Positions 12,077 through 57,038 of a DNA stretch of 64,000 nucleotides are shown one piece after another. The translations under genes and the position numbers were made by a program. Every line of letters begins with the position of its first letter. Position 1 is the stretch's first letter. A model generated the notes under the pieces. The model was not told where the DNA came from and did not search any database. It saw only the letters and a list, made by a program, of their open reading frames with translations. The DNA is taken from NCBI RefSeq assembly GCF_055900595.2, contig NZ_CM148325.1. One strand, 5' to 3'.

Positions 12077-12149
12077 GTCAGGTTGTCCTTAACGCTATTC
12101 ACAACCTCGTATACCGCCTTCAGGTTTATGTCCAGACTTCATATCTCTC

Positions 12150-37766: not shown

Positions 37767-38103
37767 TGCAACAGGACTGGCATTCCGCCGACATTATTGC
37801 GGTGCTGAAAAAGCGGGGAACGCCTCTGGCGGCACAGAGAAAAACTCATTGCGGAAGCGCTGTAAATATCGCCAGAAATCATCTGGTCCTCAAGGTACTT
37901 TGATAGCAAAGGCAAGCTGGCTGGTTCAGTCCGGAGTCTCTCTTCTTGCACTTAAAGAGATGGGAGGATGGGAAACTCTCAAAAAGGTTCAGAGATACGC
38001 TCACCTTTCAGCCGGGCATCTCACCGAGCACGCAAGCAAAATCGGCACGATCATAAGTCGCAATGGCACAAATACGGCACAGGAGGAAGCGTGGTGTATT
38101 TAA
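37763..38103 (+). pseudogene. Frameshifted Ner/Nlp-like HTH gene fused to the 3' end of a tyrosine-integrase gene (deletion scar)
   Basis: Frame A reads MMQQDWHSADIIAVLKKRGTPLAAQ (Ner/Nlp-like N-terminus); frame B reads ...GPQGTLIAKA (Ner-like C-part) joined in frame to SWLVQSGVSLLALKEMGGWETLKKVQRYAHLSAGHLTEHA, a typical integrase C-terminus with the catalytic Tyr. Confidence 0.6.
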
Positions 38104-38121
38104 ATATGGGGTAACTACTTG

Positions 38122-38144
38122 ATTTAAATGGTGCGATAATAGGA
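38122..38144. repeat. Partial copy of the thrW 3' end: distal att repeat of the thrW-integrated element
   Basis: TTTAAATGGTGCGATAATAGGA matches TTTGAATGGTGCCGATAATAGGA at 58841-58863 (tRNA 3' end plus 6 bp) with 1 mismatch and 1 indel. Confidence 0.75.
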
Positions 38145-38205
38145 ACAATACACATAGGCGATAAGCTTTGTTTTTGTTGCCTTTTTTATTGTTCATTTTT
38201 TATAG

Positions 38206-38227
38206 ATACCCCCAAAAGTACCCCCAT
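38206..38227. repeat. Putative integrase arm-type site (ATACCCCCAAAAGTACCCCCAT), left end of element
   Basis: 22-mer differs by 1 nt from the copy at 58713-58734 near the int start; each holds two TACCCCCA half-sites. Confidence 0.45.
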
Positions 38228-38345
38228 ATCTTTTTCCGCCCCTGAAATTTGGTTGTTATTCATACAGCATATCAGGCGGTAACGCTCTCCCTTTAACCCA
38301 CTTATTGTATGATAGTGCTATCCCACAATAAGGAATCAGCCAGCC

Positions 38346-38705
38346 ATGAGAATGACCAGCCGTAAAAAAGAGATACTCAGTTATTTTGAGCCGGATAACC
38401 TAGAATGGGTGACAGGTGAGATTGGTGCGCCGCCGTTCGATGTGTCGGGCGTGGCCTACCTGCTTCATGGCATGGTGTCGTTCGATAAGCGCCACCAGCT
38501 CGAATCAACCCGGCGCACACTGGAAAGCATGGTTGCTGGTGGACTGCTTGAGCGGGTGACAGTGTATGAATCGCGTCAGGTACGGCGCGGCGGTGAGACT
38601 AACGCAACGGTCGTGCGCTACGGTTTACCCGGTCACTGCGCTGTTATGCGCGATACTGGCGGCGCTGATAACGCAATATCAGGCGAATACATGCGGGTCA
38701 GTTAA
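38346..38705 (+). CDS. Hypothetical protein (119 aa)
   Basis: ORF only; no recognisable motif. Confidence 0.35.
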   Translation: MRMTSRKKEILSYFEPDNLEWVTGEIGAPPFDVSGVAYLLHGMVSFDKRHQLESTRRTLESMVAGGLLERVTVYESRQVRRGGETNATVVRYGLPGHCAVMRDTGGADNAISGEYMRVS

Positions 38706-39283: not shown

Positions 39284-39718
39284 CTACTGACCAGGATAGA
39301 GCTGATGTGCCGGGTCAAGCCAGACAATATGGAATACATTACCGATGAAAAATCCATGTATGCGACCATATTCATTGCGCGATATGGCAAATTGATAAGG
39401 TGTATAACTCTGAAACTGTTCATTCAAATGCTGAAATCCCTTAGGTTCAGATGTAGTTTGCCAATCAATCGGATGTGACTTCAACGAACCACCGCGATCG
39501 GTGGTGAACTCTCGTTCAGTCATAGTGGAAAGGTCTTTGAGGCGGTCTAACACCTTGCAAAAATAAACAGGATTCTGAGCGCTGAAAGTAAATTTCTCAT
39601 GCGCCGCATCGATATACCGAAAAGAAAAGTTGATGGTCGTTATGCCTGAACCTGTTCCCCCAGGCACTATTTTTGTTTGCGAGGGTGCAATCTTCGACGC
39701 CCTGATTCTTTTCGCCAT
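39284..39718 (-). CDS. Hypothetical protein (144 aa) coupled to the Panacea-domain gene; candidate toxin/effector partner
   Basis: ATG 2 nt after the upstream stop with no SD of its own (translational coupling); no recognisable motif. Confidence 0.5.
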   Translation of the reverse strand: MAKRIRASKIAPSQTKIVPGGTGSGITTINFSFRYIDAAHEKFTFSAQNPVYFCKVLDRLKDLSTMTEREFTTDRGGSLKSHPIDWQTTSEPKGFQHLNEQFQSYTPYQFAISRNEYGRIHGFFIGNVFHIVWLDPAHQLYPGQ

Positions 39719-39720
39719 AT

Positions 39721-40176
39721 TTAGGAAGCCATCGAACGATAAAACTCAGCCGTTACACTTTTATCAATAACATTCTTGCACGGCGCATCTGATGGAACCC
39801 CTTCACGGGCCTCCAGCCACGGCTTTTCTTGGTGCGTCATCTGCTCCAGCTCATAAGCTGTATAACCGCCAAATACCTCATAGATTTCCTTTAGATGCTT
39901 TGACACATTCGCAGGTAACTCAGGGCAGGCAATCTCTTCGTCTATTGAGCGCCATTTGTAATCTGCAAATCTGGTATACAAATCTCTGGCTACAGGGCCA
40001 TGTACCCATGCTTCAAACTTGTCAGCAACCAGTTCTTCGCCATCATTCAGCGCCATGAACCAAGCATCAGCATAGAACACCATTTTTTGCAGTTTCAGCG
40101 GCGTCATAACATCCCCATGCTCTTGAGCAAAGCAAAGCAGGTAATCCGCTACGCTGTTAAGGGTTGTAACTGCCAT
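39721..40176 (-). CDS. Panacea-domain (DUF4065, SocA/GepA-like) protein; putative antitoxin
   Basis: AGGAG SD before ATG at 40176 (MAVTTLNSVADYLL...); LKLQKMVFYADAWFMALNDGEELV...FEAWVHGPV is characteristic of the domain. Longer ORF 39721-40407 is probably upstream read-through. Confidence 0.6.
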   Translation of the reverse strand: MAVTTLNSVADYLLCFAQEHGDVMTPLKLQKMVFYADAWFMALNDGEELVADKFEAWVHGPVARDLYTRFADYKWRSIDEEIACPELPANVSKHLKEIYEVFGGYTAYELEQMTHQEKPWLEAREGVPSDAPCKNVIDKSVTAEFYRSMAS

Positions 40177-40497
40177 TATCCAATCTCCTGCCGTATGTTT
40201 TCGTCTATAACTGTCCACTACCGTTAATAATCGCATATAACCACGGGTATTGCCCATCGTAAAATGCCATTTAAAGATTCTGCGTGATGGCTCACCATCC
40301 ACCGCGCAAGATACCCGGTGCGTTTGGCTGATAATCCGCAATTTGGTTGAAACCGTCCTGGAAACCTCAAGTTTGGAAACCAGCGACTTGCATCGTAGCT
40401 TTGCCATTCGGCGGTCATAGTTACTGCTATATCCCTTTATTGGCGAGACCTGCGAGAGGTTTTGTTGTTCGAATATATAAAGGTGAATAAAGGTAAT

Positions 40498-40683: not shown

Positions 40684-40910
40684 ACGTCATACCCTCTGGA
40701 AGGATGAAACACGCCCGGATTAAATTTCATTTTTCGCGGGTATAAAAAAACGATGGGGCGGGCAGTCCCGGATAGTCAGGGCTGTAGAGATTTGACTACC
40801 CCCTCCCCACTGGATTCAGGTTACTGCTATTCCGTTAAGCGCTGCTTACGGGGATAGCTGCGTTGTGATTTTGACCATTCAGGTCGCCGCTATTTCCTCA
40901 CCGATTGGGT

Positions 40911-40942
40911 GCTACGCGCGCGCGTACTTGTCCCGAAATACC
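40911..40942. repeat. Copy 1 of a GC-palindrome motif (GCTACGCGCGCGCGTACTTGTCCCGAAAT)
   Basis: One of three same-orientation copies (with 42303 and 42589); core TACGCGCGCGTA is a perfect palindrome. Confidence 0.5.
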
Positions 40943-40980
40943 AGAAACCGCCAGCCAGAGGATGATTTCCCTCTGGTGGT

Positions 40981-41262
40981 CTACCTTTGCCTCTTGCCGC
41001 CATTTAACCGGAAGGCGTTACCGTTCGGTTGCGCTATCCCCATGCGGTGTTGCGTTTCGGTAACAGCTTTATGCAGGTCGCCAAATTCCTCAACCTTCAC
41101 GGGCGGGCGCTTCACGTTCTCCAGACACGTTTCACGGCGGCGCTTTATCCATTCCCGATCATCGTCCTCGCTGCATAACAGCATGACTTCCATCCATCGT
41201 GCGGCAGCTCTCCGGTATAGCCCTTTTGACACCAGCTCTTCAGCTTTCCTGTCCCTTATCAT
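40981..41262 (-). CDS. PerC-family transcriptional activator-like protein
   Basis: 93 aa; MIRDRKAEELVSKGLYRRAAARWMEVMLL matches the conserved PerC/Pch N-terminal signature (recalled). Confidence 0.55.
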   Translation of the reverse strand: MIRDRKAEELVSKGLYRRAAARWMEVMLLCSEDDDREWIKRRRETCLENVKRPPVKVEEFGDLHKAVTETQHRMGIAQPNGNAFRLNGGKRQR

Positions 41263-41295
41263 TTCTGCCTCTCAGATTATATAGATAAGCAAAAA

Positions 41296-41420
41296 GGTGT
41301 TGGTTCAGTTGGTTCAGTTGGTTCAATTTGTAAAGATCGTTGTTTTTATTATGTTTTTTCTAAAATATTGAACCAACATCAACTCATTTTGAACCAACAC
41401 AGCCCAGCTCTGAACCAACA
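41296..41420. repeat. Iteron array I: 3 direct + 3 inverted GTTGGTTCA repeats around an AT-rich spacer (origin-like)
   Basis: GGTGTTGGTTCAGTTGGTTCAGTTGGTTCAATTTGTAAAG ... TTGAACCAAC, TTGAACCAACAC, TGAACCAACA; the first 40 nt are the exact reverse complement of 49541-49580. Confidence 0.7.
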
Positions 41421-41521
41421 ACACAGCGATAGCTTTGTGATTGGCCCGTTATTTTCTGGCTGATATTTGAGCGTATAACAGTGTTATACAGTGATATACT
41501 GTATGGATATTACTCACTGAT

Positions 41522-41977
41522 ATGGTCTTTGCAATGAGCAAATCTAATCTGGTCGCGTTCCGCATCCCATCTGAATTGCAGGATGAGTTTAATCGGTCTG
41601 TTCTCGCTTCTGGAGGGGATAAAACCTCCTGGCTTGTTGATGCGATTCGCATGAAGCTGGGACAGCCGGAAAAGTCTATTGATTCACGAATGTTTGGGCT
41701 GGTGGAGCGCATGGAAAAAGCTGCTGCGTCGCTTATTGCCGGAAAGCCGAACATCCCACCAAAGCCATATAACGAAACGGCAGTTATAAAGATCATTGCC
41801 GATACCATCCGACAGGGATTTGATAATGGGCGTGTGATAGCTGAACGGATCAATGAAGCAGGCTATCAAACAAAAGCTGGTAAAGCGTGGGATAAAGATA
41901 TTTACAGCGCGTGGAAGCGTCAGGGAAGCAATGCTGAAAAGTTAAAAGCGGTGATTGATTGTAAGGTCAGCGTATAA
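41522..41977 (+). CDS. Hypothetical protein (151 aa)
   Basis: ORF just downstream of iteron array I; no recognisable motif. Confidence 0.4.
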   Translation: MVFAMSKSNLVAFRIPSELQDEFNRSVLASGGDKTSWLVDAIRMKLGQPEKSIDSRMFGLVERMEKAAASLIAGKPNIPPKPYNETAVIKIIADTIRQGFDNGRVIAERINEAGYQTKAGKAWDKDIYSAWKRQGSNAEKLKAVIDCKVSV

Positions 41978-42056
41978 ACATGAGTGCCCATTGGAAAGCT
42001 GCTTGGGCCAATACCTTTATACACCAGCAGGTGGTGACGATAGGTGAGGATCAGGA

Positions 42057-42278
42057 ATGAAAGGCAGAACGCCACACATTGAACATCAAGCCAACCACTT
42101 CTCGGATGTTCGCAATGAGATGATTGCCATTCGCGGTGATATGCACGGCTTGGAGCGTCGAATTATTGATAAGATTGATGAAAATAGAGATAAGGCCAGT
42201 GAAAATCAAAAGTGGATCATCGGCCTGTTGATTTTATCAATTCTTATCCCGCTACTTATCGCATTGGTCACAAAATGA
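42057..42278 (+). CDS. Small membrane-anchored protein (73 aa), XhlA/holin-like architecture
   Basis: Charged N-terminal helical segment then C-terminal TM helix (WIIGLLILSILIPLLIALV). Confidence 0.4.
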   Translation: MKGRTPHIEHQANHFSDVRNEMIAIRGDMHGLERRIIDKIDENRDKASENQKWIIGLLILSILIPLLIALVTK

Positions 42279-42302
42279 ATATCCAATGTGTATGCTGTCG
42301 AT

Positions 42303-42332
42303 GCTACGCGCGCGTACTTGTCGCAAAATATC
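42303..42332. repeat. Copy 2 of the GC-palindrome motif (GCTACGCGCGCGTACTTGTCGCAAAAT)
   Basis: Same orientation as copy 1; one CG unit shorter. Confidence 0.5.
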
Positions 42333-42588
42333 AGGCAAAGGCCAGATTCAGAACGTCGTGATAACCACCAGCACAACATGAGATGTCATGTAACGCGATT
42401 TATCACGTCAGATACATGTGATTGGTGTACCCGCATAAAACATTGTCATAGCGCGTCCTGTGCGCATATACGCCGATAATCAACACATCACCACCACTCT
42501 GTCTCATGTAGAGAACACTTTTATGGTATCCCCCGCCATCGTGTGCGTACTGGTCGGACGCAGTTGCAAAAAATTTTGCAACTGATAC

Positions 42589-42619
42589 CCCTCGCGCGCG
42601 TACTTGTCTCGAAATTGGT
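42589..42619. repeat. Copy 3 of the GC-palindrome motif (CTCGCGCGCGTACTTGTCTCGAAAT), preceded by a TTGCAAAAAATTTTGCAA palindrome
   Basis: Third same-orientation copy; separate 18-bp inverted repeat at 42564-42581. Confidence 0.5.
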
Positions 42620-42822
42620 GTTTTGCTGTGGCAGTGATATCAGAAAAATCTTCCTGTTTCACATAAAGCGGATATGCGCGTACTGTAACGGCCCCATCAA
42701 CTGGGAGCGGATTTGAGCCCCGAATGTGTAGGCAATGTCACTTAACGTTTGTCGCATACCTTCCAGAAAAAGCGATTCATGAATAATAGGGGCATGAATG
42801 CCCGGCGTACCGGGCTTATTAG

Positions 42823-43521
42823 TTAATTTGGTGCTTTAGGGTCAACATTAAAAGTTATATCACCTTCTGTATTTTTCCCGGCATAGCTAGCGGCTATTCT
42901 CGCCAACCCTTTGTAATCAGCAATTCCATCAGACTGTTGCGAGACGACTGAGCTACCAACTTTCCATAACATATTAATCTGCCGATTATTGAGATAAGCC
43001 TTGGCATCAAACGACTGGAGTATCACCCCTGCGCCGTAGAACGTGTCCGTCACAGTTGTGTTATACGCGCCAGTAATTCCATAAGTAGGCGTATAAACTG
43101 TTGTTGCCGTTCCAGTGGTATTAGCTGTACCGTAGCCACCACCATAACTATTGAACGTGGTGTTCGAGTTTCCGTACGTTGTTGCTGAGCTCACACCAGT
43201 TTGCCCGTATATTGGGATGGTTACATTACGAGTATTTGAAATGGCCCCGCTTCTCAAAAAGTTCAAGAGAATTACCTGGTCAGCCAATTTTTCATCTTTA
43301 ACTTGTGTATATCCTTGGCTTGATAAACTGGCGGCTACTACCGTAGCTATTTGAGTGTATTCAATCTGTTTGGTGTTCCAAAGTTCTTGGCTTGCGGGGA
43401 TGATCAAGAACTTCTTACCGACAGATTGCCCGGAAGATAAAGCATTGACCGTTACTAACGGTTTTTGTACGCATCCAGCCAATAATGACAGGGATAATAT
43501 TAAAAGAAGATTTTTAATCAT
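42823..43521 (-). CDS. Lipoprotein, Gly/Thr/Asn/Tyr-rich
   Basis: Signal peptide with lipobox (MIKNLLLILSLSLLAGC); low-complexity central region. Confidence 0.6.
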   Translation of the reverse strand: MIKNLLLILSLSLLAGCVQKPLVTVNALSSGQSVGKKFLIIPASQELWNTKQIEYTQIATVVAASLSSQGYTQVKDEKLADQVILLNFLRSGAISNTRNVTIPIYGQTGVSSATTYGNSNTTFNSYGGGYGTANTTGTATTVYTPTYGITGAYNTTVTDTFYGAGVILQSFDAKAYLNNRQINMLWKVGSSVVSQQSDGIADYKGLARIAASYAGKNTEGDITFNVDPKAPN

Positions 43522-43671
43522 GATAATCTCACCTAAGAATTGCGTGGTTATAAATTATCATCACTGTAAGCGAATGTAAGCCACAGACTCGTAATGTGAT
43601 ATGGAATTTTGATAGTTGGCTCAATATCAGTATGCCGTCCTTGGCTATTATGGTTTTGTTAGTTAGAGCGT

Positions 43672-46398
43672 CTATTCCCATTCGCTAACATCTTTCATGC
43701 CACTGAGGGTAGCTACAATCCCGGCCCTTGTCAGTTTCACGAATTCTTCAGCCCCAACGGCATCACGAATTGCTTTCATGGCAATTTTATTGGCCGAAAA
43801 TCGTTTCTCTGCTGCGGCGATCGCTGCTGGTGATGCCCCTGCGCGCACTGCTTTTGTAGCTTCCTGAACGGCTTTCTCTATCGCATATCGACCACTTCTT
43901 GTCGCCCCAATCTTAGCCACAGCATTTCTTAGCGCGCCACCAGCAACCAAACCACTAATCGAACCAATTACACCACCGCCAAAGCCTCCAGCGATCGCAC
44001 CTGACTGTTGAACACCGTTCATAATCACGCCGACGATCTTTGGAAGGCCTGAATCGAGCGTTTTGAGAGCCTCAGTTGTTCTTCCCGTGCGCTCTACGTA
44101 TCGCTGCGGTCTGGTACTGGCTTTAGCGAGTACACCGAACTCTTTCATCATTCTACCGAGATCTGGCGCATGACGACTGATGGCGTTTACATTCTGCTGG
44201 GTCATGAGCTTGGCAAAATACTGGATACCTGACTCTTCACCGATTCCTCCCTTCTCTCCCTGCGCCACAGCATGCTGAAGAATAGATGCTATTGCAGGTT
44301 GGCGTTCTGCTTCCGGCAGCGCGGAGATAAGACGGTGAAAAGCTCCCGTTCCAGTGTTTGCGGATGCCTTAAGCGTATCGGCACCTTTTCTTACCATAGC
44401 GTCTGATGCGAGATCTCGACCAAAAACAGATTCGGCATTTTGTTTGGCGATAATGTAACTTTTAGAGAGATCGTTAGCTTTCTGCCATTCTGTGAGGAAG
44501 TTTCCTTTTTCAGCCATGATGCGCATGTCATCAGTGATAGCTCTGCGCATTTCTCCGGCAATCCGGGCGGCATTGGCCTTACCTGCCCGGGTGTTTGCTT
44601 GTTCAGCATCAGCAAACTTAGCACGCCATGCCTTCATCCCGTCGAAGGTTATGCCGCCACCTTGGTTGTTGGCAGCCTGAAACTGTTTCATCTCCGGGCT
44701 GAGTGGAACATTGGCTGCTTTTTCTGCTTGGACGACAGCCATTCCATTACTCATTTTCATCCTTTCGCGTGGCATCGTGCTTCGCAGTTCTGCCCATGCC
44801 ATATTCTCTGCTGTTTTCATATCACTGAGGCTCGCGATGATGCGCTCTTTAATTGCTGCGCTTTTTTCTGATGCGCTTCCAGACTCAGCACCGAAATCAG
44901 ACAACTGCTTATTCAACTTTGAGGATATTTCATTGAAGGCCGTAAGGTGAGCATCCTGAACATTCCCAGGAGTTGATGCCAGAACACCTTCTGCTTGGGC
45001 AATTCCACGACTACCTGAGCGCATTCCAGGCGTCAGGGTGTTGATATTAATACCAGTGATTTTCGCCGCCTTAGCGACATCATCTCTGACGTTTGATGCC
45101 TGCGATGCGATATGCTCTCGGCCTACGGCAGAACGCGCTGCTTTCGATACATCATTGGCGGTTTCCAGAGTATTTGCTGCCCCTAACACATGGCCTGATT
45201 GATTTGTATTACTCCGCAATACATCTCGCATTACGTCACTGGCTGTCTGTCCGCTCTTTATTAAAGCGCGTGCTCCTAGCGATCCTGCTAGGCCAATACC
45301 TGTCTCTTTTGCTAGGTCTTCTGGGCTGATCTGCCCGTTCTTTTGGGCGTTCACCAATGTACCTGGCAGGTTTTCTGCCAACATACTAGCCACCTTTGTG
45401 GCCGCACGTTCAGCACGTGGAGCGTTGGCAACTGAAGAAGCTGCGGTAGCTGCCTTTCCTGCACCTAATCCTGTAATAAGGTAAGGTGCTAGCTGCTCAC
45501 CAGCCTGCGCGTATGGATCTGTAGGTTGGTCTACTGGGCGAAAGACAGGTGATATGGGCGTGTATGTGCCATCACCCACACCAAGCTTCTGAGCTGCCCA
45601 TGCTCCGGCTGATTGCGCCGCATTGACTACCCCCACGCCTGCGTCCATTACATCAAACGGTATATTAGCAATCCCTCTGGCCATCTGCTCTGGCGCAGCT
45701 TTCAGTCCTGGCGAAAGATATTCCATCTCAGGATTAAGGTTAGACTTGGCTACTTGCTGCTGCGGTTCCCCGGCATTTTCATCGGCGAGAAACTGAGCTC
45801 TTTTCTGCTCCCATGAACTGGCTGTTGGTAGTCCTGCTTCTATGTTCTTAAATTGCTGACGTTTTGCTTCCCATGCAGAAATATCTCCCACCTGAGAGAT
45901 TTCTTTATCAAGCTCTGAGTAGTCAGGCTGCTGAAGATTGCGATGTTGACTGGTTTGTGCAAACTGCAAGATTTCACTGTCATCAGGGATTATTCCGGCA
46001 TCTGCAAATTTACTTACGTAATTAGCCGTTTCATCTGGCAGTGTAGATTTACCGTTTCTGACGGCATTAATACGAGCATAGCCAGAATTATACCCAGCCA
46101 ATGCCATACCTATATCACCAAATCGCTTCATTCCTTTATTGAGATGGTTTGCTGCGATATCCATTTGCTTTTCAAATGGCAGTGAGCGCGGATCTGTTCC
46201 ACGATAACCAGCATCACTCATTACTGAGGGCATCAGTTGAGCAAATCCTCTAGCTCCTTTCGGTGACTCGGCACTTCCGTTACCACTAGATTCATTGCCA
46301 ACTAATGTTTCCATCGTCCCTGATGGGAAACCATATTTTTCATCGAGATGACGGGAATAGGCTTTCTGTTTTTCTGTCAGTTGTGCCATCATTGCCAT
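43672..46398 (-). CDS. Large protein with N-terminal lytic transglycosylase (SLT) domain; podovirus gp16-like internal virion/ejection protein
   Basis: 908 aa; SLT motifs (GARGFAQLMPSV ... ALAGYNSGYARI) then long helical region and C-terminal hydrophobic segment. Confidence 0.65.
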   Translation of the reverse strand: MAMMAQLTEKQKAYSRHLDEKYGFPSGTMETLVGNESSGNGSAESPKGARGFAQLMPSVMSDAGYRGTDPRSLPFEKQMDIAANHLNKGMKRFGDIGMALAGYNSGYARINAVRNGKSTLPDETANYVSKFADAGIIPDDSEILQFAQTSQHRNLQQPDYSELDKEISQVGDISAWEAKRQQFKNIEAGLPTASSWEQKRAQFLADENAGEPQQQVAKSNLNPEMEYLSPGLKAAPEQMARGIANIPFDVMDAGVGVVNAAQSAGAWAAQKLGVGDGTYTPISPVFRPVDQPTDPYAQAGEQLAPYLITGLGAGKAATAASSVANAPRAERAATKVASMLAENLPGTLVNAQKNGQISPEDLAKETGIGLAGSLGARALIKSGQTASDVMRDVLRSNTNQSGHVLGAANTLETANDVSKAARSAVGREHIASQASNVRDDVAKAAKITGININTLTPGMRSGSRGIAQAEGVLASTPGNVQDAHLTAFNEISSKLNKQLSDFGAESGSASEKSAAIKERIIASLSDMKTAENMAWAELRSTMPRERMKMSNGMAVVQAEKAANVPLSPEMKQFQAANNQGGGITFDGMKAWRAKFADAEQANTRAGKANAARIAGEMRRAITDDMRIMAEKGNFLTEWQKANDLSKSYIIAKQNAESVFGRDLASDAMVRKGADTLKASANTGTGAFHRLISALPEAERQPAIASILQHAVAQGEKGGIGEESGIQYFAKLMTQQNVNAISRHAPDLGRMMKEFGVLAKASTRPQRYVERTGRTTEALKTLDSGLPKIVGVIMNGVQQSGAIAGGFGGGVIGSISGLVAGGALRNAVAKIGATRSGRYAIEKAVQEATKAVRAGASPAAIAAAEKRFSANKIAMKAIRDAVGAEEFVKLTRAGIVATLSGMKDVSEWE

Positions 46399-47708
46399 CC
46401 CTTAAGTTTTGCCTGATAGTAACTTTCCGGCAGATAGCCATGTGCGGTCACATAATCCTTAACCAGTGAAGGATCCTGCAACAGCATTTTGGTATCAGTT
46501 TCTTCGTCCTTAGATTTGGTTACAGGAATACCGAGCCCGGCAATCTGTCGTTTCTGCATTCGAATAATTACGTCCTGCGCTTTATTCAACTCTCGCAAAA
46601 ATGCCTCATTGCTGGTTGCTGACTTAATGCCATTTTGAGATTGCATAAGGGCAGCCCTTTCCCCTTCGGTTGGGTTAGAGCCAAAAGTCCCTTTGAGGCT
46701 AGGCAGAATAACCTTTAGGTTGTATTCATCAGCTTTGGCGCGTAGGCTTCGTGTGTCTTCTGCTACATCAGGAAGGAATCCAAACCCCAGCGTCAGGGGG
46801 TTATAGTTCTGCGAGCGGGTAACGGCCGAAGGATGTTTCCCTACAATTCCCGCCAGTTCATGACCCACTTCAAGCGCAGAGTTCAAGGAGTCGATGTTAC
46901 CTGCAACAGTATTAATTTTATCGTTCATCTTCTCCACTTTCGCCTGCTGTATCTTGCTCAGTTCAGCATTGAGCTTGTCTCTCTCGATGTCATTTTGAGC
47001 ACGTCCAAGTCGTGCTTTCAGAACCATTTCTCTCGTGCGTAGTTGGTTATCGGATAGGACTTTGAACTGCTCCATATCGAGACGTCGATTACCCTGTTCC
47101 GCATTAACCTGAGCATTATATGCGGATGTATCTGCGTTCTGCTGTGCAATGCTCTGCCCTTGCTGCTTCTCTTGAACACTAAAGTAACTATTTGGATCAG
47201 CATGGAGGTGGATGAGGTCAGTGATTCTGTTGAATTCCTGTGGGTCATTCTGCCAAGACTGATAAACCTCTTCAGCAGGAAGACCAAATCGCTGTAATAC
47301 TGGATTTGCCTGCTGAATGGCCTTCTGCATGGTCAGTGGATCTCCAGTTTGTGACGCAAGACGCAGATTCATGGCAGCGTCAGCGGTCTGTCGATTTTGC
47401 TCAGCATCAATGAATCCCATCTGTTTTTGAGAATCAGCCATAAACTGGGGATACTGGGCCATTAACTTCTGCACGCCAACACGATCATTATTAGCTACCG
47501 CACTACCCAACCGTGCCTGATATTCTTTTAACTGCTGGGAAATTTGCGCCTGCTGATTAATCTCAGCAACGCCTCTTAGCCCCTGTAGCGCCATTAAACC
47601 TACGTTTGGCTGCTGCTGATACTGCACAGGCTGAGGAACGGAAGAACGAGGAGCATTATCATTTTGCGGTGCCATGCTAGGCAGCCCGCCAAGTTGCCAT
47701 GTCGCCAT
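46389..47708 (-). CDS. Gln-rich coiled-coil protein (439 aa); gp15-like by size and position
   Basis: Overlaps neighbours by 1-10 bp; no enzymatic motif. Confidence 0.5.
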   Translation of the reverse strand: MATWQLGGLPSMAPQNDNAPRSSVPQPVQYQQQPNVGLMALQGLRGVAEINQQAQISQQLKEYQARLGSAVANNDRVGVQKLMAQYPQFMADSQKQMGFIDAEQNRQTADAAMNLRLASQTGDPLTMQKAIQQANPVLQRFGLPAEEVYQSWQNDPQEFNRITDLIHLHADPNSYFSVQEKQQGQSIAQQNADTSAYNAQVNAEQGNRRLDMEQFKVLSDNQLRTREMVLKARLGRAQNDIERDKLNAELSKIQQAKVEKMNDKINTVAGNIDSLNSALEVGHELAGIVGKHPSAVTRSQNYNPLTLGFGFLPDVAEDTRSLRAKADEYNLKVILPSLKGTFGSNPTEGERAALMQSQNGIKSATSNEAFLRELNKAQDVIIRMQKRQIAGLGIPVTKSKDEETDTKMLLQDPSLVKDYVTAHGYLPESYYQAKLKGWQ

Positions 47709-48385
47709 TAGAATCCAAGCCCCCCAACAAGACCAATAAGCCCACCACCAATAGCGCCGGCCGCAGTTCCTATTCCAGGAACAACGGAACCAAGTTGCGC
47801 ACCCGCTAAAGCGCCTGATGCTGCCCCACCAATACCACGCGCAAGACTGGATGGCTGCTGCGCCTGACCTGCACGAATAGCGCCAAGCCCCTGCAAGAGT
47901 TGTCCGGTATTATTGGCGTAGTTTTGCCCTGCCGTTGCCTGCCCTGATGCCGCATTCATCCCGACATTTAGCAGGTTTCCATAATTTTGCATTTGCCCAC
48001 TGAGCCAATTGTTATAAAGCATGGGCGCAATGGAAGATAACTGGTTACTGGTAGCTGTTGAGCCAAGCCCCCCGGTAGCTTCTGCTGAGACAAGGTTCTG
48101 ATAACGGGCCTGATCTGCCTGTGTTTTATATAAACCAGAACCAAAGAAATCATTCGCGGCTTTATTCTGCCCTTCCAGAGTCATCAGTCCTTGTAGTTGT
48201 TGTAAAGCAGGCAATCCGACTTCTGCATACGGCTTGAGATTATTCATCACCGTATTCCACTGCTCGCGCTGCAAATCAATTGCCTGCTGCTGGGCCTTCG
48301 CCTGAGCTTTAGAGGCACCACCATCACCGCCTTTTTCGTATACGGCACGATTGAGATGTTTATGAGCTATGTGGGTAATTAACAT
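47708..48385 (-). CDS. Protein with C-terminal glycine-zipper membrane segment (225 aa); gp14-like
   Basis: C-terminus GIGGAASGALAGAQLGSVVPGIGTAAGAIGGGLIGLVGGLGF. Confidence 0.5.
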   Translation of the reverse strand: MLITHIAHKHLNRAVYEKGGDGGASKAQAKAQQQAIDLQREQWNTVMNNLKPYAEVGLPALQQLQGLMTLEGQNKAANDFFGSGLYKTQADQARYQNLVSAEATGGLGSTATSNQLSSIAPMLYNNWLSGQMQNYGNLLNVGMNAASGQATAGQNYANNTGQLLQGLGAIRAGQAQQPSSLARGIGGAASGALAGAQLGSVVPGIGTAAGAIGGGLIGLVGGLGF

Positions 48386-48840
48386 TCGCTGAATTCCTTA
48401 TATTGTTGCCGAGTTAACTGATAAAGCGTTACGCCGACGGGTTTACCACATCTGATATAAGCATCATCAAGGTGACCAACACGGGTAGCGCCAAGCAAAC
48501 GGATAATTGCCCGTCCGTATTTGGTGGTGTCAGGAACCATGGTAATGCTGTTAAGGAATGGTGAGTTTTCGAGAAGCCATTTGCAGAATAATCGATGCCC
48601 TTGCAGTGCATATTCACCACGGAATCCGGGGTCGTACACCGCATGGCATTCAACAACGCTATGCCAGAAGTTACGCACTTCATGAACGCCAGCCAGCACT
48701 AATCCTTCGTAGATGCCGAGATATACCGCATCAGGCTTGATGTAGTACGTGTGCCCCGGCTCAACAATATTTTCGGTATTGCCTGGCTCGTTAAGAAAGG
48801 CCTGTAATCGCACAGGGTTATCAATAAATTTTAGTTCCAT
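48379..48840 (-). CDS. Hypothetical protein (153 aa); first gene of the four-gene module (gp13-like position)
   Basis: ORF with coupled start; no recognisable motif. Confidence 0.5.
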   Translation of the reverse strand: MELKFIDNPVRLQAFLNEPGNTENIVEPGHTYYIKPDAVYLGIYEGLVLAGVHEVRNFWHSVVECHAVYDPGFRGEYALQGHRLFCKWLLENSPFLNSITMVPDTTKYGRAIIRLLGATRVGHLDDAYIRCGKPVGVTLYQLTRQQYKEFSEC

Positions 48841-48850
48841 GCGATGCCAT

Positions 48851-49018
48851 CCATTTTCACATACAGCCTGCCAGCGCCTTATCTATTAACCCTCGTGCAA
48901 TTTCATGCAGAGTTGGCGCTACTCCAATTCCTGATTTTTTACGCTGCTCTTCCTGAATTTTCTTTATCGCTTCCATTTGCTTCTCACTTATCAATACCGG
49001 CTTTACTGAAATAGCCAT
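48851..49018 (-). CDS. Small protein (55 aa), possible ribbon-helix-helix DNA-binding protein
   Basis: AGGGGG SD then ATG; MAISVKPVLISEKQMEAIKKIQEEQRKKSGIGVAPTLHEIARGLIDKALAGCM. Not in the ORF track because under 60 aa. Confidence 0.35.
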
Positions 49019-49465
49019 AACGCCCCCTTAGAACTGTATAAAACAACAGTTATTATAGTTTCACAAATCGCAATATTCATCATCGTAATTGCAAAATATG
49101 AAACAAATAGCACAAAAAAATGCCACCGCTCAGTAGCTGGTGGCATCGTTCTGTGTGTCAGGTTTTGACAGGTTTTTTATGGACTCTAAAAACTATATTT
49201 ATGGTGTCGCATTACTCTTCACGGCAGGCGCTTTTCAGTTCTGCCCTTGCTTCTGGCTCCATTGGTAATTTGATTCGCGATCAGCTATGCGGATGGTTTG
49301 CTGAACAGGCATAACAACTTCTCAGAGGCTGTTTTTTGAACTACGAAAATTTCGTAGTGCTCACTTTCAAAAACGTCACGCCCTTGTACACAGGATTTTA
49401 CGAAAGTCTCGTAAAACACTCTCTGATGCCAGCCAGGTGTTGTGCGCATCAATTCAGTCACATTG

Positions 49466-49580
49466 TGTTGGTTCAAAATACCGTGTTGTTGGTTCAGTGT
49501 TGGTTCAATAAAAAGAATAAAATCCTTATAAAACAATACTCTTTACAAATTGAACCAACTGAACCAACTGAACCAACACC
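49466..49580. repeat. Iteron array II: 3 direct + 3 inverted GTTGGTTCA repeats around an AT-rich spacer, next to the primase gene
   Basis: Same architecture as array I; 49541-49580 is the exact reverse complement of 41296-41335. Confidence 0.7.
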
Positions 49581-49602
49581 TTTTCTACGCACATGAAGAA
49601 GC

Positions 49603-52362
49603 TCATTCTTCAGATGAGTTATAATCTCCTGGCTGGTAATTGAGTACATAAACGTTTATTTGTCGTCCCTGAATACGTGGTGATTTTCTTTGGTATCCAC
49701 GACCGCTGTTTGGTGGGGTTAGCATCCCGGCTTTTTTCAACACTTCAGCAAACTGTTTTGCGTTGAAACCACATGCGATCTCCTTTTCAAATGTGGCCGG
49801 GAATGTGTAGAAAATCATTGGGCTTTCGTCATGTTCTCCACGCTGACGGTATCCGGCTAAATCTTTGATGGGCAAATCTGCCGGGCTGTATGGAAATGGT
49901 GCAAAACGGCTAAGCCCATAGGCATTAAGAAATGCCTCCGTTTGTTCAATAATCTGCTGATGTTCTTTGTTACCTGTGCCGAACTCGCGCAACCATGCGT
50001 TATAGCTGTGCTGTATCGCATCACGGCATGTCTGAGCATCCCAGCCTGTTACAACCTCGCCTAACAGCAATGCGGCCTCCAGAATGGCAAATCGCGCGGC
50101 TACACGGTGAACCTGCTCACCATAATCGGATGGGATCAGGCTTCTCCATCTGCTTTCGCAATCACGAACGGTTTTAATAGCCTGTTGCTGGTGGTCTGCC
50201 AGCCATTTAATCCACTCACGCCCGGACGCGCCGTGGTGATGCTGGTAAGCGTCTTTCAGTGCGTCTGCGTGCTGTTTTCCGTTCTGGTAATCGTGAAAGC
50301 GTACTGCTTTACTCAACGGAATATTCAGCAGTCGCACCAGTTGCCCGGCTTTGGTTTTTCGCCCGGAAGTAGCGATAAATGTTTCTAAATCCATTTCTCC
50401 GGTGCTGATTGCCACTGTACGCCAACGTTTTAGATCCCGGTTTCCACCATCTTTAGCGCCTTGCAGTTTCCCTACACCGTTAAATAACGCATAGGCAGAC
50501 TGTGAAACGCTGACAGGATCAGCGCCCTGACCAACTTCATCAAGCGGCATTAGTCCGTCATTGTGGGCGGCGGCCTCATTTGCCAGCCCCAGCGCGGTTC
50601 CGTACCACGTCAGCCGCAGTAAATCAGGGTTGCCGTATAAGCTGCTCGCCACGTTTGCCGTGGTGGTCTTACCTGCGCTCGACTGCTCATAGAAATGAAT
50701 GCCGAACCCGTCAGCGCCCACCAGCCCAATCAATGGCGCTGCCAGTGCTGCGCCGATCCCGGTCATCATTGAATAGTTACCAAAGGCCAGACGCGCCACG
50801 TTATCACGCCAGCTTTTCGCGCTCCCTGAGACGGTATATCCGGCTGCGGCTGAGCTTCTCCCGCTGAACAGCACAGGATTTTCAGGTGTTCCGATGATTT
50901 CCCCATCAGGCATGATGTACGCTCCGCATTGCCAGCCAGTGGCATGAGCAACACGCCACAATTCACGAGAGCCACTGCGTTGTAGCCAGTCTGCCAGTAT
51001 TGCTCTGAGGCTGCTTTTGGTCGTGACATTTACCCCACCAGCTTTAAGTGTGCGCCATCCTTCACGTTCACCAATATCAGCCAGTGGAATGGCAGCGGTT
51101 GTCGGCGTTTCAGAACCAAACGACAGCCAGCGAAGAATGAGATACTGGTCTTTATCGTCTCTGCCAGTACCGATAACGCTTAACGGAGAACATAACCAGC
51201 TTTCGTTATTGATGATTTCTCCACTCTGGCTGTCAGCTCTCGGAGATACCCAATAAATACCATCCTCGCGGCTTTCTATTCTTGGTTTCAGTGGGTCGGT
51301 ATCCATAACCTTAAAATCGCTTCCCTCAATGGTCTGTGGCTCCTGTTTCACGCCATTACCCTGTGGTTGGTACATTGACTTATTGAACGCTTCTGTGGCG
51401 CATTTAATGCCGTGTTTTTGGTGGTAATCATTCCAGTCTGCTTTGTGATCTGTCGGGGGTAATGCCACCCATCCAGAAACAGATAAAGCTGCTTTTTCTG
51501 CTGCTATTCTCCCCGTGTTTTGTCTTCCTTCGCTGTGGTCGTTATCCGCAGCAATGATGATTTGTGCTGAAGGATATTTATCCCGCAGTACCTGGGCGAC
51601 ATATAACAGGTTCCCGGCATCAATCGCCGCCACTGTCAGCGCCTCTGGACGAATTAAATGGGCAGATAATGCCGTTGCCAGCCCTTCTGCGATTAAGATG
51701 CTCTGTGTTGTTTCTGGTGCGTTTATGGCGTGATATGCCCCCCGCTTTGCTGAACCTGTCAGGAGTCTTTTTTCACCATGTGAGGTAATAGTCTGTGCTG
51801 CTGTGACTGCGCCGGATTTATCCACCAGCGCCAGCAACAGAGATCCATCGGGCAACACGGGGAATGTAAAATCACCTACCCCTTTCGCAACCAGATAATC
51901 AGATTTGCCGTTTACAGCCTTTCTGCGCATGTCATCAAACTGACGGGAAAACGTATCCCGTCTTTGTTGTTCGTCCTTCTCTGCCCTTTTCAGGCGCTCC
52001 TGTTCGCGTCGCTGGCGCTCGGTTTCCAGTTGTTCCCGTTTCTGGCTGGTGGCTTCTGGTGTTTCCGTTGTCCGGTAATCAATACCCAGAACATCAGCGG
52101 CAAGAAGCGCCGCCTCTGTTGTGTCGCAGTTATTTACGCGTTTAATTAAATCCAGCCCATCACCAGCGCCGCACTGATTACAGATGAAGCTACCGCGCCC
52201 GTTGTCATCGAACCGGAATCGATCTTTGCCCCCACATGCAGGGCAGGGAGCATGACGGCGCGGAGAGTCAGGGACATTTATGTTCAGGCAGCCCAGCACA
52301 TGAGGCCAGTTGTTTTCAGACGCACTGATAACCTGACGGATAAGATCAATGTTTCGCATCAC
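49603..52362 (-). CDS. Primase-helicase (P4 alpha-like: Zn-binding primase + TOPRIM + P-loop NTPase)
   Basis: 919 aa; N-terminal zinc ribbon (CPACGGKDRFRFDD...CNQCGAGDGLDLI), TOPRIM-like acidic region (IIIAADNDHSEGRQNTG), Walker A-like SSAGKTTT. Confidence 0.85.
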   Translation of the reverse strand: MMRNIDLIRQVISASENNWPHVLGCLNINVPDSPRRHAPCPACGGKDRFRFDDNGRGSFICNQCGAGDGLDLIKRVNNCDTTEAALLAADVLGIDYRTTETPEATSQKREQLETERQRREQERLKRAEKDEQQRRDTFSRQFDDMRRKAVNGKSDYLVAKGVGDFTFPVLPDGSLLLALVDKSGAVTAAQTITSHGEKRLLTGSAKRGAYHAINAPETTQSILIAEGLATALSAHLIRPEALTVAAIDAGNLLYVAQVLRDKYPSAQIIIAADNDHSEGRQNTGRIAAEKAALSVSGWVALPPTDHKADWNDYHQKHGIKCATEAFNKSMYQPQGNGVKQEPQTIEGSDFKVMDTDPLKPRIESREDGIYWVSPRADSQSGEIINNESWLCSPLSVIGTGRDDKDQYLILRWLSFGSETPTTAAIPLADIGEREGWRTLKAGGVNVTTKSSLRAILADWLQRSGSRELWRVAHATGWQCGAYIMPDGEIIGTPENPVLFSGRSSAAAGYTVSGSAKSWRDNVARLAFGNYSMMTGIGAALAAPLIGLVGADGFGIHFYEQSSAGKTTTANVASSLYGNPDLLRLTWYGTALGLANEAAAHNDGLMPLDEVGQGADPVSVSQSAYALFNGVGKLQGAKDGGNRDLKRWRTVAISTGEMDLETFIATSGRKTKAGQLVRLLNIPLSKAVRFHDYQNGKQHADALKDAYQHHHGASGREWIKWLADHQQQAIKTVRDCESRWRSLIPSDYGEQVHRVAARFAILEAALLLGEVVTGWDAQTCRDAIQHSYNAWLREFGTGNKEHQQIIEQTEAFLNAYGLSRFAPFPYSPADLPIKDLAGYRQRGEHDESPMIFYTFPATFEKEIACGFNAKQFAEVLKKAGMLTPPNSGRGYQRKSPRIQGRQINVYVLNYQPGDYNSSEE

Positions 52363-54329: not shown

Positions 54330-55389
54330 TGGTTGCCCCCGTTTTTCCTGGCATTTCGCCACCTTCCAGCAGGAAATGAACGTCACGAACGGCGAGATCC
54401 AATATCGCGAGTAACGCCTTCAGTCTTTCGTCTCGTGAGGGAGAGTTGCTCACCAGAATGTCGTTAATCACTTCTGTCAGTGTGATGATCTGGCTTGTGC
54501 GTTCGAGGGGATCCATATGCACATCGTAGGTTTTAATCATGTGCCACCTCCATGCGGATACGACCAGCAAAAAAGCAGACGTGATCGCGCACCAGAGAAC
54601 GGCGAGCATCGCGTTCAGACTCGGCAGCAATATGATGAATTTTGGCGGTAATTGTCGGGCAATCGCGGCGAACTGCGGCGATAATCCAGATAAATTGCGG
54701 TTTTTGGGTAGGGGTAGTAGCCAGCATGTGGCAGCCTCCTTGTACTGGGAATTCTTCCCACCACCGGAGCTGCGAAACTCGCTGGTGGTGGACTGAACAG
54801 AGTTCGCAGTACCGGCGTACAAGGAAACCGGCCAGCCTTTCGGCTGCCCTGTCCAGCCCACCATAATTTTGCAAGCGACGCGGATTATAACCACATCACT
54901 GAAAAAAGTGTGAGTCTGGCTAACGGCACAAAAAAAGACGCTCGGCGCGTCATGTGTCGCCTCGTACATTTCCGGGCTGCGAAACCCGGCACCCGTTTTA
55001 TGAGGTGCCTTATAACCATAAACCGTGTTGCCGCATAACGGCAAGCTCTTTTTTATGGACTCCGAAAACTCACTATTGGAAGAACCAGAAGCACAGTACA
55101 TCGCGCTCATTTCGTTAACGTCACGCGCGTGGACGAATGTTTTTGTGGAGTCACTACACGAGCGGAAGACATCATCTACGACCAGAAATTTTCTGGCGCA
55201 GCCGCTGACCTTCTCAAGGCTAATATCATCGCCCGAGATTTCTGGTATGGTTAAGGCATCCGTTCCGGCCACCAGCAAATGATAAACTTTGCTTGTATCT
55301 GCTGTATTAATGCCTGACTTTGCCGTCATATTTCTGGATTTTGGCGACATACCAGCCAGTGAAAATGTCTTCTTCTGGATGGGTATCAT
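54322..55389 (-). CDS. Uncertain ORF (355 aa); may be two genes, with an internal start at 54540 behind a strong GGAGGTG SD
   Basis: Continuous frame, but upstream two-thirds is low-complexity and a well-placed SD+ATG at 54540 suggests a separate 73-aa product ([19 protein letters not shown]...). Confidence 0.3.
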
Positions 55390-56835: not shown

Positions 56836-57038
56836 CAGGCCACCTCGTCTCTAGATTCTAATATACACTTCTCAATCCATTCATCTATTTCAGACTCAAC
56901 AAAAGCAATTGCCCGACTTCCAATTTTTACCTGTTTAGGGAACCTCCCCTGACTAATAAGACGATAAATCCATGCTTTGCTATAACCAGTTCGCCTTTGA
57001 ACTTCAGAGAGACGAATTAATGAATTGTAATTAGCCAT
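56835..57038 (-). CDS. alpA: AlpA-family phage transcriptional regulator / excisionase-like protein
   Basis: 67 aa; LIRLSEVQRRTGYSKAWIYRLISQGRFPKQVKIGSRAIAFVESEIDEWI is the AlpA HTH signature. Confidence 0.85.
   Translation of the reverse strand: MANYNSLIRLSEVQRRTGYSKAWIYRLISQGRFPKQVKIGSRAIAFVESEIDEWIEKCILESRDEVA

Follow-up and report, generated by a model that had tools for sequence, protein, structure and literature searches.

Two clusters of a 9-bp iteron in an integrated island of E. coli are probably the mirror-image units of a single compound replication origin of the SaPI/PICI type, which is split by cargo genes and read by the island's own initiator, a primase-helicase (Pri-Rep). The origin type is an already known one; its layout is unusual. 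The 64-kb stretch of DNA that was analysed (the window) consists of E. coli chromosome and a phage-satellite-like island of ~20.7 kb integrated at a tRNA-Thr gene (thrW). The right end of the island carries the integrase gene (57467–58681, minus strand), which adjoins thrW (tRNA-Thr(CGU), 58847–58922, minus strand). An AlpA-like gene (56835–57038) encodes a 67-residue product that matches 'excisionase and transcriptional regulator' PHROGs, the backbone genes all lie on the minus strand (PGAP annotation of the identical locus L001), and the island contains a C4/CI-type antisense RNA. The integrase at thrW, the AlpA-like gene and the one-way transcription of the backbone are features of Gram-negative PICIs (Fillol-Salom 2018). 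Family scans of the island genes recognised no terS, cos or capsid-remodelling gene, and the best direct repeat of the thrW end at the left boundary, a match of only 12 nt, is not convincing. Roughly 10% of complete E. coli genomes carry an island of this family. Full-text literature searches on satellites or PICIs with ejection or tape-measure genes and on thrW/DUF927 islands yielded no published description of this element. None of 36 IMG/VR contigs with the core motif has the terminal repeats of a circular or excised form; most are prophage calls from isolate genomes.

The iteron, GTTGGTTCA, occurs in 12 exact copies in the window (~0.5 expected by chance for an exact 9-mer, both strands counted), and all 12 lie inside array I (41299–41419) or array II (49467–49577). 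As the earlier note had described, each array comprises three direct and three inverted repeats around an AT-rich spacer. The anatomy of both units is a tandem iteron triple, followed by a 43-bp spacer (83.7% AT in each, in an island of 52% AT overall) and three phased inverted iterons. In the distal unit (array I), the outer triple (41299–41325) has a 9-bp period, with plus-strand copies at 41299, 41308 and 41317. The spacer (41326–41368) is the putative melting site, and the three inverted iterons (41369–41419) are found on the minus strand at 41369, 41390 and 41411, i.e. at offsets of 70, 91 and 112 with a 21-bp phasing. In the proximal unit (array II), the outer triple (49551–49577) is on the minus strand, with copies at 49551, 49560 and 49569, and its outermost iteron is 25 bp from the Pri-Rep stop codon, close enough to the ~20 bp given previously. 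The proximal spacer spans 49508–49550, and the three inner iterons (49467–49507) are on the plus strand at 49467, 49488 and 49499, at offsets of 70, 81 and 102 from the outer triple.

The two arrays are inverted copies of each other with ~77% identity over ~130 bp. The exact inverted identity that had been noticed between 41296–41335 and 49541–49580 is in fact 45 nt long (41292–41336 is the exact reverse complement of 49540–49584); its copy I, read on the plus strand, consists of AAAAGGTG, three consecutive GTTGGTTCA iterons and ATTTGTAAAGA. This core is also kept in the distal units of other genera. A recent duplication as the source of the 40-bp identity was considered and rejected, the identity being a conserved, putatively functional core of both unit types in many genera. 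The inner edge of the proximal unit carries a CCTGGCTGGCA motif on the minus strand (49427–49437), which recurs, as CTGGCTGGCAG, in the middle of the contiguous compound origins of four relatives (loci L008, L020, L027 and L037).

The Pri-Rep gene (49603–52362, minus strand; PHROG 1139) encodes a 919-residue protein with Zn_Ribbon_Prim, Toprim_3 and DUF927 helicase domains (Pfam) followed by a C-terminal tail. Residues 403–814 match a 'Pathogenicity island protein' (PDB id: 8tch, E = 1.4e-11, phmmer against PDB), so the DUF927 helicase appears similar to that of SaPI Rep. The N-terminal part (residues 8–362 only, the Zn-ribbon/Toprim primase domain) is 33% identical to the alpha protein of phage P4 (BLASTP). 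The earlier note had likened the arrays to the ori/crr pair of P4, and the likeness stands for the layout of two iteron clusters several kilobases apart, one of them directly 3' of the primase-helicase gene: in P4 itself, 45 bp separate the end of crr from the alpha stop codon, and ori is 4.7 kb away (P4 record). P4 is also a small integrative satellite, its primase domain is homologous to that of Pri-Rep, and the C4/CI-type antisense RNA and the AlpA-like gene of the island point in the same direction. Taken further, the likeness would make the island a P4-family satellite with a true P4-type ori/crr, made up of two octamer clusters and served by an alpha protein that binds both. Such an identity is very improbable, and membership in the P4-type replicons is largely refuted. 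Beyond residue 362, BLASTP finds in Pri-Rep no similarity to the alpha helicase or to the C-terminal origin-binding part of alpha, and the helicase is instead of the SaPI-Rep-like DUF927 kind. The 9-bp iteron and the unit architecture differ from the annotated 'ori type 1' repeats of P4, whose crr consists of two direct 120-bp repeats, whereas the units in the window are inverted. Furthermore, the second cluster of P4 is located upstream of the replication operon, and the far unit in the window is downstream. Family scans of the island genes returned no homologue of P4 sid, delta or psu.

That Pri-Rep reads the arrays is suggested by a comparison of 46 homologous loci from different Enterobacterales species. 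In about 41 of the 46, the array begins 26–99 bp past the Pri-Rep stop codon, and across the set the iteron sequence tracks four residues within positions 892–897 of the C-terminal tail. Proteins with RKSPRIxGRQ in this region are paired with TGAACCAAC iterons (at least 28 loci), those with GRVRE(D/G)GRQ with TGAGACAACA (six loci), those with LRIDGKQ or RKTPRIDGRQ with TGAACCGAC, those with GGKQH with TAACCC(G/A), and those with HLNNAR with TTATCCCA or TTAGCCCA. Only six of ~900 aligned columns discriminate the TGAACCAAC-class proteins from the TGAGACAAC-class ones, and four of these six fall at residues 892–897. The corresponding codons of the window gene (RKSPRI; 49672–49689, minus strand; from the alignment columns) thus encode a candidate determinant of iteron specificity. 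In an AF2 model of the C-terminal 160 residues, residues 892–897 are on the C-terminal β-hairpin; the best fold match of the model, a winged-HTH protein in complex with oriT DNA, is weak (Foldseek, E ~0.1). The four-residue switch from RKSPRI to GRVRED goes together with a two-base iteron change from TGAACCAAC to TGAGACAAC, and the covariation as a whole offers a way, at the level of sequence, into how an initiator of the SaPI-Rep type recognises its origin.

Two loci (L002 and L003) represent a natural chimera, in which the C-terminal half of the protein and the adjacent iterons have been swapped together. Their proteins are 86% identical to the window Pri-Rep over the first 350 residues and then continue into a DUF5906 C-terminus. 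Iterons of the sequence GGTAYAGGT replace array II in these loci, and homology to the window returns ~45 bp outside the array. Taken together, the covariation and the chimera point to the arrays as cognate sites of the initiator, specifically of its C-terminal part, an assignment made by computation; they lend support to the earlier proposal of origin-like iteron clusters read by the element's own primase-helicase. About one third of the E. coli genomes with a GTTGGTTCA array carry no cognate DUF927 C-terminus, so the array is orphaned. Such orphans are kept beside the PerC gene in elements with a non-cognate initiator, and one of them has lost an iteron. The far unit can therefore outlast its initiator, for evolutionarily short periods at least. 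In a separate case (locus L004), descent of the array from a recombination between arrays I and II was rejected because the sequence past the third iteron matches neither.

The arrangement of initiator and proximal unit is that of SaPI and PICI replicons. The C-terminal winged-helix domain of SaPI Reps binds iterons that flank an AT-rich region directly 3' of rep (Ubeda et al., summarised in PMC9371898), and E. coli PICIs have the same layout with a functional pri-rep-ori (PMC6092414). Pri-Rep, a predicted member of the self-loading Rep helicase class fused to a primase (Pfam and the match to PDB 8tch), has a helicase homologous to SaPI Rep. Its putative origin starts a few tens of bp past the stop codon, directly 3' of the gene, with three iterons on one side of the AT-rich centre and three opposed ones on the other, a layout shared by about 41 of the 46 homologous loci, and the specificity determinant would likewise be in the C-terminal part of the protein. 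The island, too, resembles these elements in its int gene, AlpA-like gene, PerC gene and backbone of one direction. Unlike them, it is larger (~20.7 kb), it carries virion DNA-delivery genes while terS, capsid-remodelling genes and cos were not identified, and it has two complete mirror-oriented units with 8 kb of genes in between. Neither PMC9371898 nor PMC6092414 describes a dual or split origin.

The mirror-symmetric plan itself is found in the ori of EcCICFT073 (CFT073 NC_004431, around 1384009–1384235), which was experimentally validated in a ts-plasmid maintenance assay (PMC6092414). There, a tandem iteron pair just past the pri-rep stop codon leads into an AT-rich stretch and then inverted iterons, and an inverted tandem pair ~210 bp away closes the far end of the compound. 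However, the EcCICFT073 iteron is CTGTCTACC, its Pri-Rep has no similarity to the window Pri-Rep (BLASTP) and is not its homologue, and its origin is contiguous, with no cargo split.

The distal unit is present in at least seven other genera and is inverted every time. In nine distal arrays from eight genera or lineages, the iteron columns are 92% identical and the spacer columns 58%, the spacing is fixed, and the length of the spacer and its ATTTGTAAAG and TTGTTTT motifs are conserved; the far unit thus appears to be under selection. Its geometry is its own. Offsets of 70/81/102 are confined to arrays beside the gene (30 of the 37 that adjoin a primase stop codon), and offsets of 70/91(/112) characterise 38 arrays away from the primase gene. 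The far unit is therefore not a recent copy of the proximal one, which, together with the constant mirror orientation and the conservation of iterons and spacing against diverging spacers in at least eight lineages, makes a relic without function, left by a duplication or by recombination between two elements, a highly unlikely account of the far array. What a relic would explain are the orphan arrays, one of them short of a repeat, and the degenerate distal array of one relative (L011).

In two relatives (L074 and L079), both complete units stand back-to-back within ~330 bp. In six others (L006, L008, L020, L027, L035 and L037), an extended origin is closed by an inverted triple whose sequence follows the iteron class, and the distal outer triple of the window is the positional equivalent of this far-end triple. 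Relatives with the shared backbone also exist without the cargo block (L008, L010 and L044), and in cargo-less relatives PerC comes directly after the compound origin. Given the conserved far-unit geometry and the back-to-back units of cargo-less relatives, the E. coli pair is therefore probably one compound origin that has been split by cargo. All split pairs found are of the major iteron class, and for the far unit the covariation with the protein comes only from the far-end triple of contiguous origins. Not all loci have a far unit: at ~10 with a compact proximal unit, no second array is located within the 10-kb flank.

In such a compound origin, Pri-Rep, a fusion of a primase domain like that of P4 alpha and a DUF927 helicase like that of SaPI Rep, would recognise the 9-bp GTTGGTTCA via its C-terminal tail around residues 892–897. 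The unit beside the gene (49467–49577) would be the primary origin and the far unit (41299–41419) its conserved partner, with 5–10 kb of cargo lodged between them in E. coli and several other genera. Each unit would suffice for the two-sided initiator binding and the melting that a SaPI-type origin requires. Once the island is induced and excised, Rep may occupy both units, and the far unit may either initiate replication as a second site or be looped to the primary unit as its partner in cis. If so, a PICI-type origin can be a mirror-symmetric compound that tolerates kilobases inserted at its centre, which bears on how PICI-type elements load two helicases. The prediction of satellite origins would also be affected, as half of the origin escapes a search that is confined to the sequence 3' of rep.

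The surroundings of the far unit allow a different role. Its outer triple borders on a conserved stretch rich in TATATA, immediately upstream of a PerC-family regulator gene (40981–41262, minus strand; NCBIfam and PHROG matches, PGAP annotation), which reads away from the unit, and may overlap the PerC promoter. The far array could thus be a Rep-dependent control element rather than an initiation site, which limits copy number by titration or handcuffing or serves as an operator that ties the divergent promoters of PerC and orf151 to the level of Rep. The junction of triple and TATATA also precedes the downstream genes of cargo-less relatives, orphan arrays are retained beside PerC despite a non-cognate initiator, and many relatives have no separate far unit. 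There is precedent in plasmids, where extra iteron clusters (incA of P1, incC of F) exert negative control. Like the far unit, these are second clusters of initiator sites outside the minimal origin of the same replicon. They lack an AT-rich melting region, however, and belong to initiator families unrelated to Pri-Rep, while the far unit keeps the full origin anatomy, which a pure binding or titration site does not need. A consensus scan found no match to a sigma-70 promoter around either array, the region 40900–42900 included. Moreover, orf151 has an operator-like set of direct repeats and a palindrome of its own (41474–41504, plus strand; sequence inspection), and the repeats, in the form TGTCTTAC-N2-TGTCTTAC, recur upstream of orf151 homologues in seven other loci whether the array is present or absent. 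A role in control alone is accordingly unlikely.

The earlier note had also raised the inversion of the module between the arrays, which finds no support in the genomes. A search of 5,426 complete E. coli genomes retrieved 655 with matching sequence, and in none of the 655 did the predicted inversion junction reach at least 80% coverage; isomers at low frequency within a culture may still occur. The orientation of the bracketed genes is fixed across genera, in that orf53 invariably points the same way as the primase gene and orf151 the opposite way (more than 30 loci in other genera), and family scans found no recombinase or invertase gene among the genes between the arrays. These observations also make it improbable that the inverted arrays are mainly recombination substrates, whether as an invertible switch of ejection genes or as homology arms for cargo exchange. 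The 45-nt exact inverted identity is indeed longer than the minimum commonly given for RecA recombination, the cargo is wholly different between genera while the bracketing units are conserved, and the replicon swap of L002 has its breakpoint at the edge of array II. Cassette exchange, however, leaves both the covariation of iteron and protein and the conserved origin geometry unexplained, and it need not compete with origin function, of which it could be a by-product.

The cargo of the split origin (41420–49466; PHROG 770, 917/2534, 598 and 651, PGAP annotation of the identical locus L001) was previously called structural-like, and it does encode homologues of the P22-type DNA-ejection proteins. 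All are on the minus strand: a gp16-like protein with a lytic transglycosylase (43672–46398), a gp20-like protein (46389–47708), a gp7-like protein (47708–48385) and a gp14-like DUF2824 protein (48379–48840). The P22-like ejection genes suggest a P22-like helper for the island. In other genera, the same position holds tape-measure proteins (Chimaeribacter and Leclercia) or lytic TMP-like proteins (Cedecea and Rosenbergiella). It is conceivable, though only tentatively proposed, that the origin centre is a dedicated cargo slot, which recurrently holds a virion DNA-delivery protein in a widespread family of satellite-like islands of Enterobacterales. If so, these satellites would combine their own genome-delivery protein with the capsid and tail of the helper, a strategy not described before, and delivery would be coupled to an origin layout that replicates or regulates the slot from both sides. 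Helper-matched DNA-delivery genes in the slot of several genera point to a satellite lifestyle for which no description was found in the literature. Defence genes are located in the slot as well. A defence-system reading of the E. coli cargo was rejected, PADLOC being negative on those genes, with matches in other genera only.

The remaining cargo genes are orf53 (48857–49018, minus strand), a lipoprotein gene (42823–43521, minus strand), a small membrane ORF (42057–42278, plus strand) and orf151 (41522–41977, plus strand). The product of orf151 has a weak PHROG match only and no Pfam family; by eye, its N-terminus resembles a ribbon-helix-helix motif.

The source DNA is an E. coli chromosome, and an identical locus is found in strain APEC E19025. 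The two iteron arrays sit in a ~20.7-kb island integrated at the tRNA-Thr gene thrW (58847–58922). On the minus strand, the island starts with genes for an integrase and for AlpA-like, Ant-like and Ash-like proteins, followed by several small ORFs, the gene of the 919-aa primase-helicase (49603–52362), which is the putative initiator, and array II. Next come orf53, homologues of P22 gp14, gp7, gp20 and gp16 (the last carrying a lytic transglycosylase domain), a lipoprotein gene, the plus-strand orf73 and orf151, array I, PerC and accessory genes. The 9-bp iteron GTTGGTTCA has 12 exact copies in the 64-kb window against a chance expectation of ~0.5 per exact 9-mer, and 12/12 lie inside two clusters. 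Array I consists of a tandem triple (41299–41325), a 43-bp spacer and three inverted iterons that start at 41369, 41390 and 41411. Array II mirrors this order: three iterons that start at 49467, 49488 and 49499 come first, then a 43-bp spacer, then the inverted tandem triple (49551–49577). Aligned as inverted copies, the arrays are 77% identical across ~130 bp, and the AT content is 83.7% in each spacer versus 52% across the element. The exact inverted match of 40 bp reported in the earlier note is correct and extends to 45 nt (41292–41336 versus 49540–49584). It is made up of the iteron triple and ATTTGTAAAG and is a predicted functional core, conserved and common to both unit types in many genera.

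The iterons covary with the initiator. The comparison set comprised 64 loci encoding initiator relatives, one genome per species, of which 46 were usable. In ~41 of the 46 loci an iteron array begins 26–99 bp past the initiator stop codon. The iteron sequence varies by lineage, following a short C-terminal motif of the protein: RKSPRIxGRQ is paired with the iteron TGAACCAAC, GRVRE(D/G)GRQ with TGAGACAACA, LRIDGKQ or RKTPRIDGRQ with TGAACCGAC, GGKQH with TAACCC(G/A), and HLNNAR with TTATCCCA or TTAGCCCA. Proteins of the RKSPRI type go with GTTGGTTCA arrays and those of the GRVRED type with GTTGTCTCA arrays. Overall, GRVRE(D/G)GRQ-class proteins are ~80% identical to the E. coli protein, nearer to it than many members of the RKSPRIxGRQ class, and the two classes are separated by 6 of ~900 aligned columns, four of which are residues 892–897. 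In an AlphaFold2 model of the last 160 residues (pLDDT 77), residues 892–897 fall on a C-terminal β-hairpin; a fold search with this model ranks a winged-HTH protein in complex with oriT DNA first, with a weak score.

Two other E. coli loci, L002 and L003, amount to a natural experiment in which the protein C-terminus and array II appear to have been exchanged together. Their proteins are 86% identical to the initiator over the first 350 residues and then have a DUF5906 C-terminus; at this switch GGTAYAGGT arrays replace array II, and ~45 bp beyond the array the sequence is again homologous to that of the window. We take the arrays to be the likely cognate sites of the C-terminal part of the initiator. 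The DUF5906-type relatives have two GGTAYAGGT clusters (20467–20562 and 21571–21673 in L002, with the equivalent in L003), one directly after the stop codon and the other ~1 kb off, past two small genes. A two-cluster origin is thus also found in combination with an unrelated helicase module, and in these elements a GTTGGTTCA array is kept as an orphan beside PerC.

The initiator contains primase Zn-ribbon, Toprim and DUF927 domains according to Pfam. Its sole solved relative found by sequence is 8tch ('Pathogenicity island protein', E = 1.4e-11, aa 403–814). The P4 alpha protein is 33% identical to it over aa 8–362, the N-terminal primase domain, and nothing aligns past aa 362. The 8tch and DUF927 matches, with similarity to P4 alpha confined to the primase domain, argue that the protein joins a primase domain of the P4 alpha kind to a helicase/initiator of the SaPI Rep kind. 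Through a C-terminal winged-helix domain, initiators of this class read iterons that directly follow rep; at least two stand on each side of an AT-rich centre, those on one side pointing opposite to those on the other (PMC9371898). E. coli PICIs have the same iteron plan and a functional pri-rep-ori, and some carry PerC (PMC6092414). Each array of the window shows the layout described for the class in SaPI/PICI origins, and by its predicted mechanism and its helicase homology the element is a SaPI/PICI-type replicon. The parallel with the P4 ori/crr pair drawn in the earlier note holds for the two-cluster layout (in P4, 45 bp separate crr from the stop codon of alpha, and ori is 4.7 kb away), but membership in the P4 ori/crr family is rejected because the origin-binding part and the iterons differ.

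Many relatives have no separated far unit and carry instead a single extended origin of 250–330 bp. In L074 and L079, the proximal unit stands back-to-back with a complete distal-type unit that has its own AT-rich stretch, ATTTGTAAAG motif and outer triple. In L006, L008, L020, L027, L035 and L037, the extended origin closes with an inverted triple, which varies with the iteron class, and then ACACCTTTTTnCTTATATA, an ending that matches the outer flank of array I. The inner edge of array II (49427–49437) bears CCTGGCTGGCA, the central motif of the extended origins. In L008, L010 and L044 the backbone (primase, origin, PerC and a pRiA4b-family gene) is shared and the 8-kb block is missing. Most simply, the two arrays in E. 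coli would be mirror-image halves of a single compound origin whose centre holds the cargo (41420–49466). The PICI EcCICFT073 of E. coli CFT073 has a published origin (L107 34010–34236) that was validated by experiment, and its initiator is non-homologous to that of the window. In this origin, a tandem iteron pair follows the stop codon and is matched ~210 bp further on by a tandem pair in inverted orientation (18 nt, 89% complementary, 190 nt apart). Origins outside the DUF927 family can thus also have the mirror-symmetric compound plan. A split mirror-image origin enclosing genes is not described in PMC9371898, PMC6092414 or elsewhere in the literature searched. Of note, an CTGGCTGGCA(G) motif is conserved at 49427–49437 and at the centre of the contiguous origins of L008, L020, L027 and L037, and a similar CAGCCAGCCAG is found at ~21545 in L002, beside the unrelated GGTAYAGGT array.

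A mirror-oriented far unit with the triples outermost is found 4.8–8.8 kb downstream in Rosenbergiella, Chimaeribacter, Cedecea, Serratia, Enterobacter and Leclercia, and as a degenerate copy in Lonsdalea. IMG/VR contigs show the same '+ then −' array pair, spaced 7.4–10.4 kb, and all split pairs found carry the major iteron class. Across all loci compared, iterons of gene-adjacent arrays have offsets 0, 9, 18 / 70, 81, 102 (30 arrays) and those of arrays away from the gene 0, 9, 18 / 70, 91(, 112) (38 arrays). None of the latter has the (70, 81, 102) spacing, while the 91/112 type also occurs in three proximal arrays (L024, L029 and L047). The far array is not a recent copy. In nine distal arrays, spacing is fixed and iteron columns are 92% identical versus 58% for spacer columns, which argues that selection maintains the far unit as a group of binding sites.

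Every genus examined encodes a virion DNA-delivery protein in the slot between the units. E. coli has the P22-type ejection proteins gp14/7/20/16 (window 43672–48840), Chimaeribacter (L016 14632–18042) a tape-measure protein of 1,136 aa and Leclercia (L057 16198–18912) one of 904 aa, and Cedecea and Rosenbergiella have lytic TMP-like proteins (L019 16258–18012 and L015 14448–16250). Defence-like genes (PD-Lambda-2_C, SoFic) accompany them, and no capsid, portal or terminase genes were seen in the elements examined. This gene content suggests a family of satellites that supply their own protein for genome delivery, of which the literature searched gave no description.

The earlier note had also proposed that the intervening module could invert. 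The predicted array I/array II junction was built and searched in all complete E. coli genomes: none of 655 matching genomes covers ≥80% of it, and the best coverage, 60%, corresponds to the native arrangement. In >30 loci of other genera, orf53 and the primase gene invariably share one orientation and orf151 has the opposite one, and no recombinase gene was found between the arrays. Fixed inversion isomers are thus absent, while assemblies could miss rare in-culture isomers.

The anatomy of the far unit is complete, which favours an origin-like role. It may fire as a second origin or, by analogy with P4, where crr is the looped cis partner of ori, may be such a partner here. Its junction with the TATATA-rich upstream region of PerC and its persistence as an orphan speak for control instead, in which it may be a negative element or serve PerC and orf151 as an operator. 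The GTTGGTTCA array occurs in 564 of 5,426 complete E. coli genomes (median two places per genome) versus 367 with a DUF927-type C-terminus and 130 with the DUF5906 type, so about one third of array-bearing genomes are without the cognate initiator. One orphan array is missing an iteron.

The product of orf151 (41522–41977) has no Pfam family and, by eye, a ribbon-helix-helix-like N-terminus. In all genera, the gene is preceded by two direct repeats, TGTCTTAC-N2-TGTCTTAC, and a TAAAAT box; in E. coli (41474–41504) the repeats are TATAACAGTG / TTATACAGTG with a palindrome. They are present with or without the far array (window, L015, L016, L018, L019, L020 and L035). Situated at the far end of the cargo slot, orf151 probably encodes a regulator that controls its own expression.

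Elsewhere in the island, Rfam places a C4 antisense RNA (54781–54868, minus strand, 81 bits) and isrK (54931–55008, minus strand, 69 bits) within the PGAP 'ash family protein' ORF, directly downstream of the Ant-like gene. Together they resemble an RNA immunity module of the P1/P7/P4 style, and the ORF may be over-called in its 5′ part. At the accessory end, a Panacea/SocA-antitoxin-like gene beside a MAG6450-family gene (39284–40407, minus strand) may form a toxin–antitoxin pair. The 232-aa lipoprotein gene (42823–43521, minus strand) lies directly after the gp16 homologue inside the cargo; PADLOC gave zero matches for these three genes. Immediately left of the island is a C-terminal fragment of a tyrosine recombinase ORF (37849–38103 and ~38100–38350), and no thrW-derived direct repeat >12 nt was found at the island's left side. 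L004 (E. coli RM9131, 3515–13140) is a degraded, IS1203-interrupted thrW island without the primase and ejection genes, in which the PerC–array block is on the strand opposite to that in the window relative to int/thrW. Iterons and spacing are perfect in its single array, but the spacers have diverged; Leclercia L057 carries this same variant.
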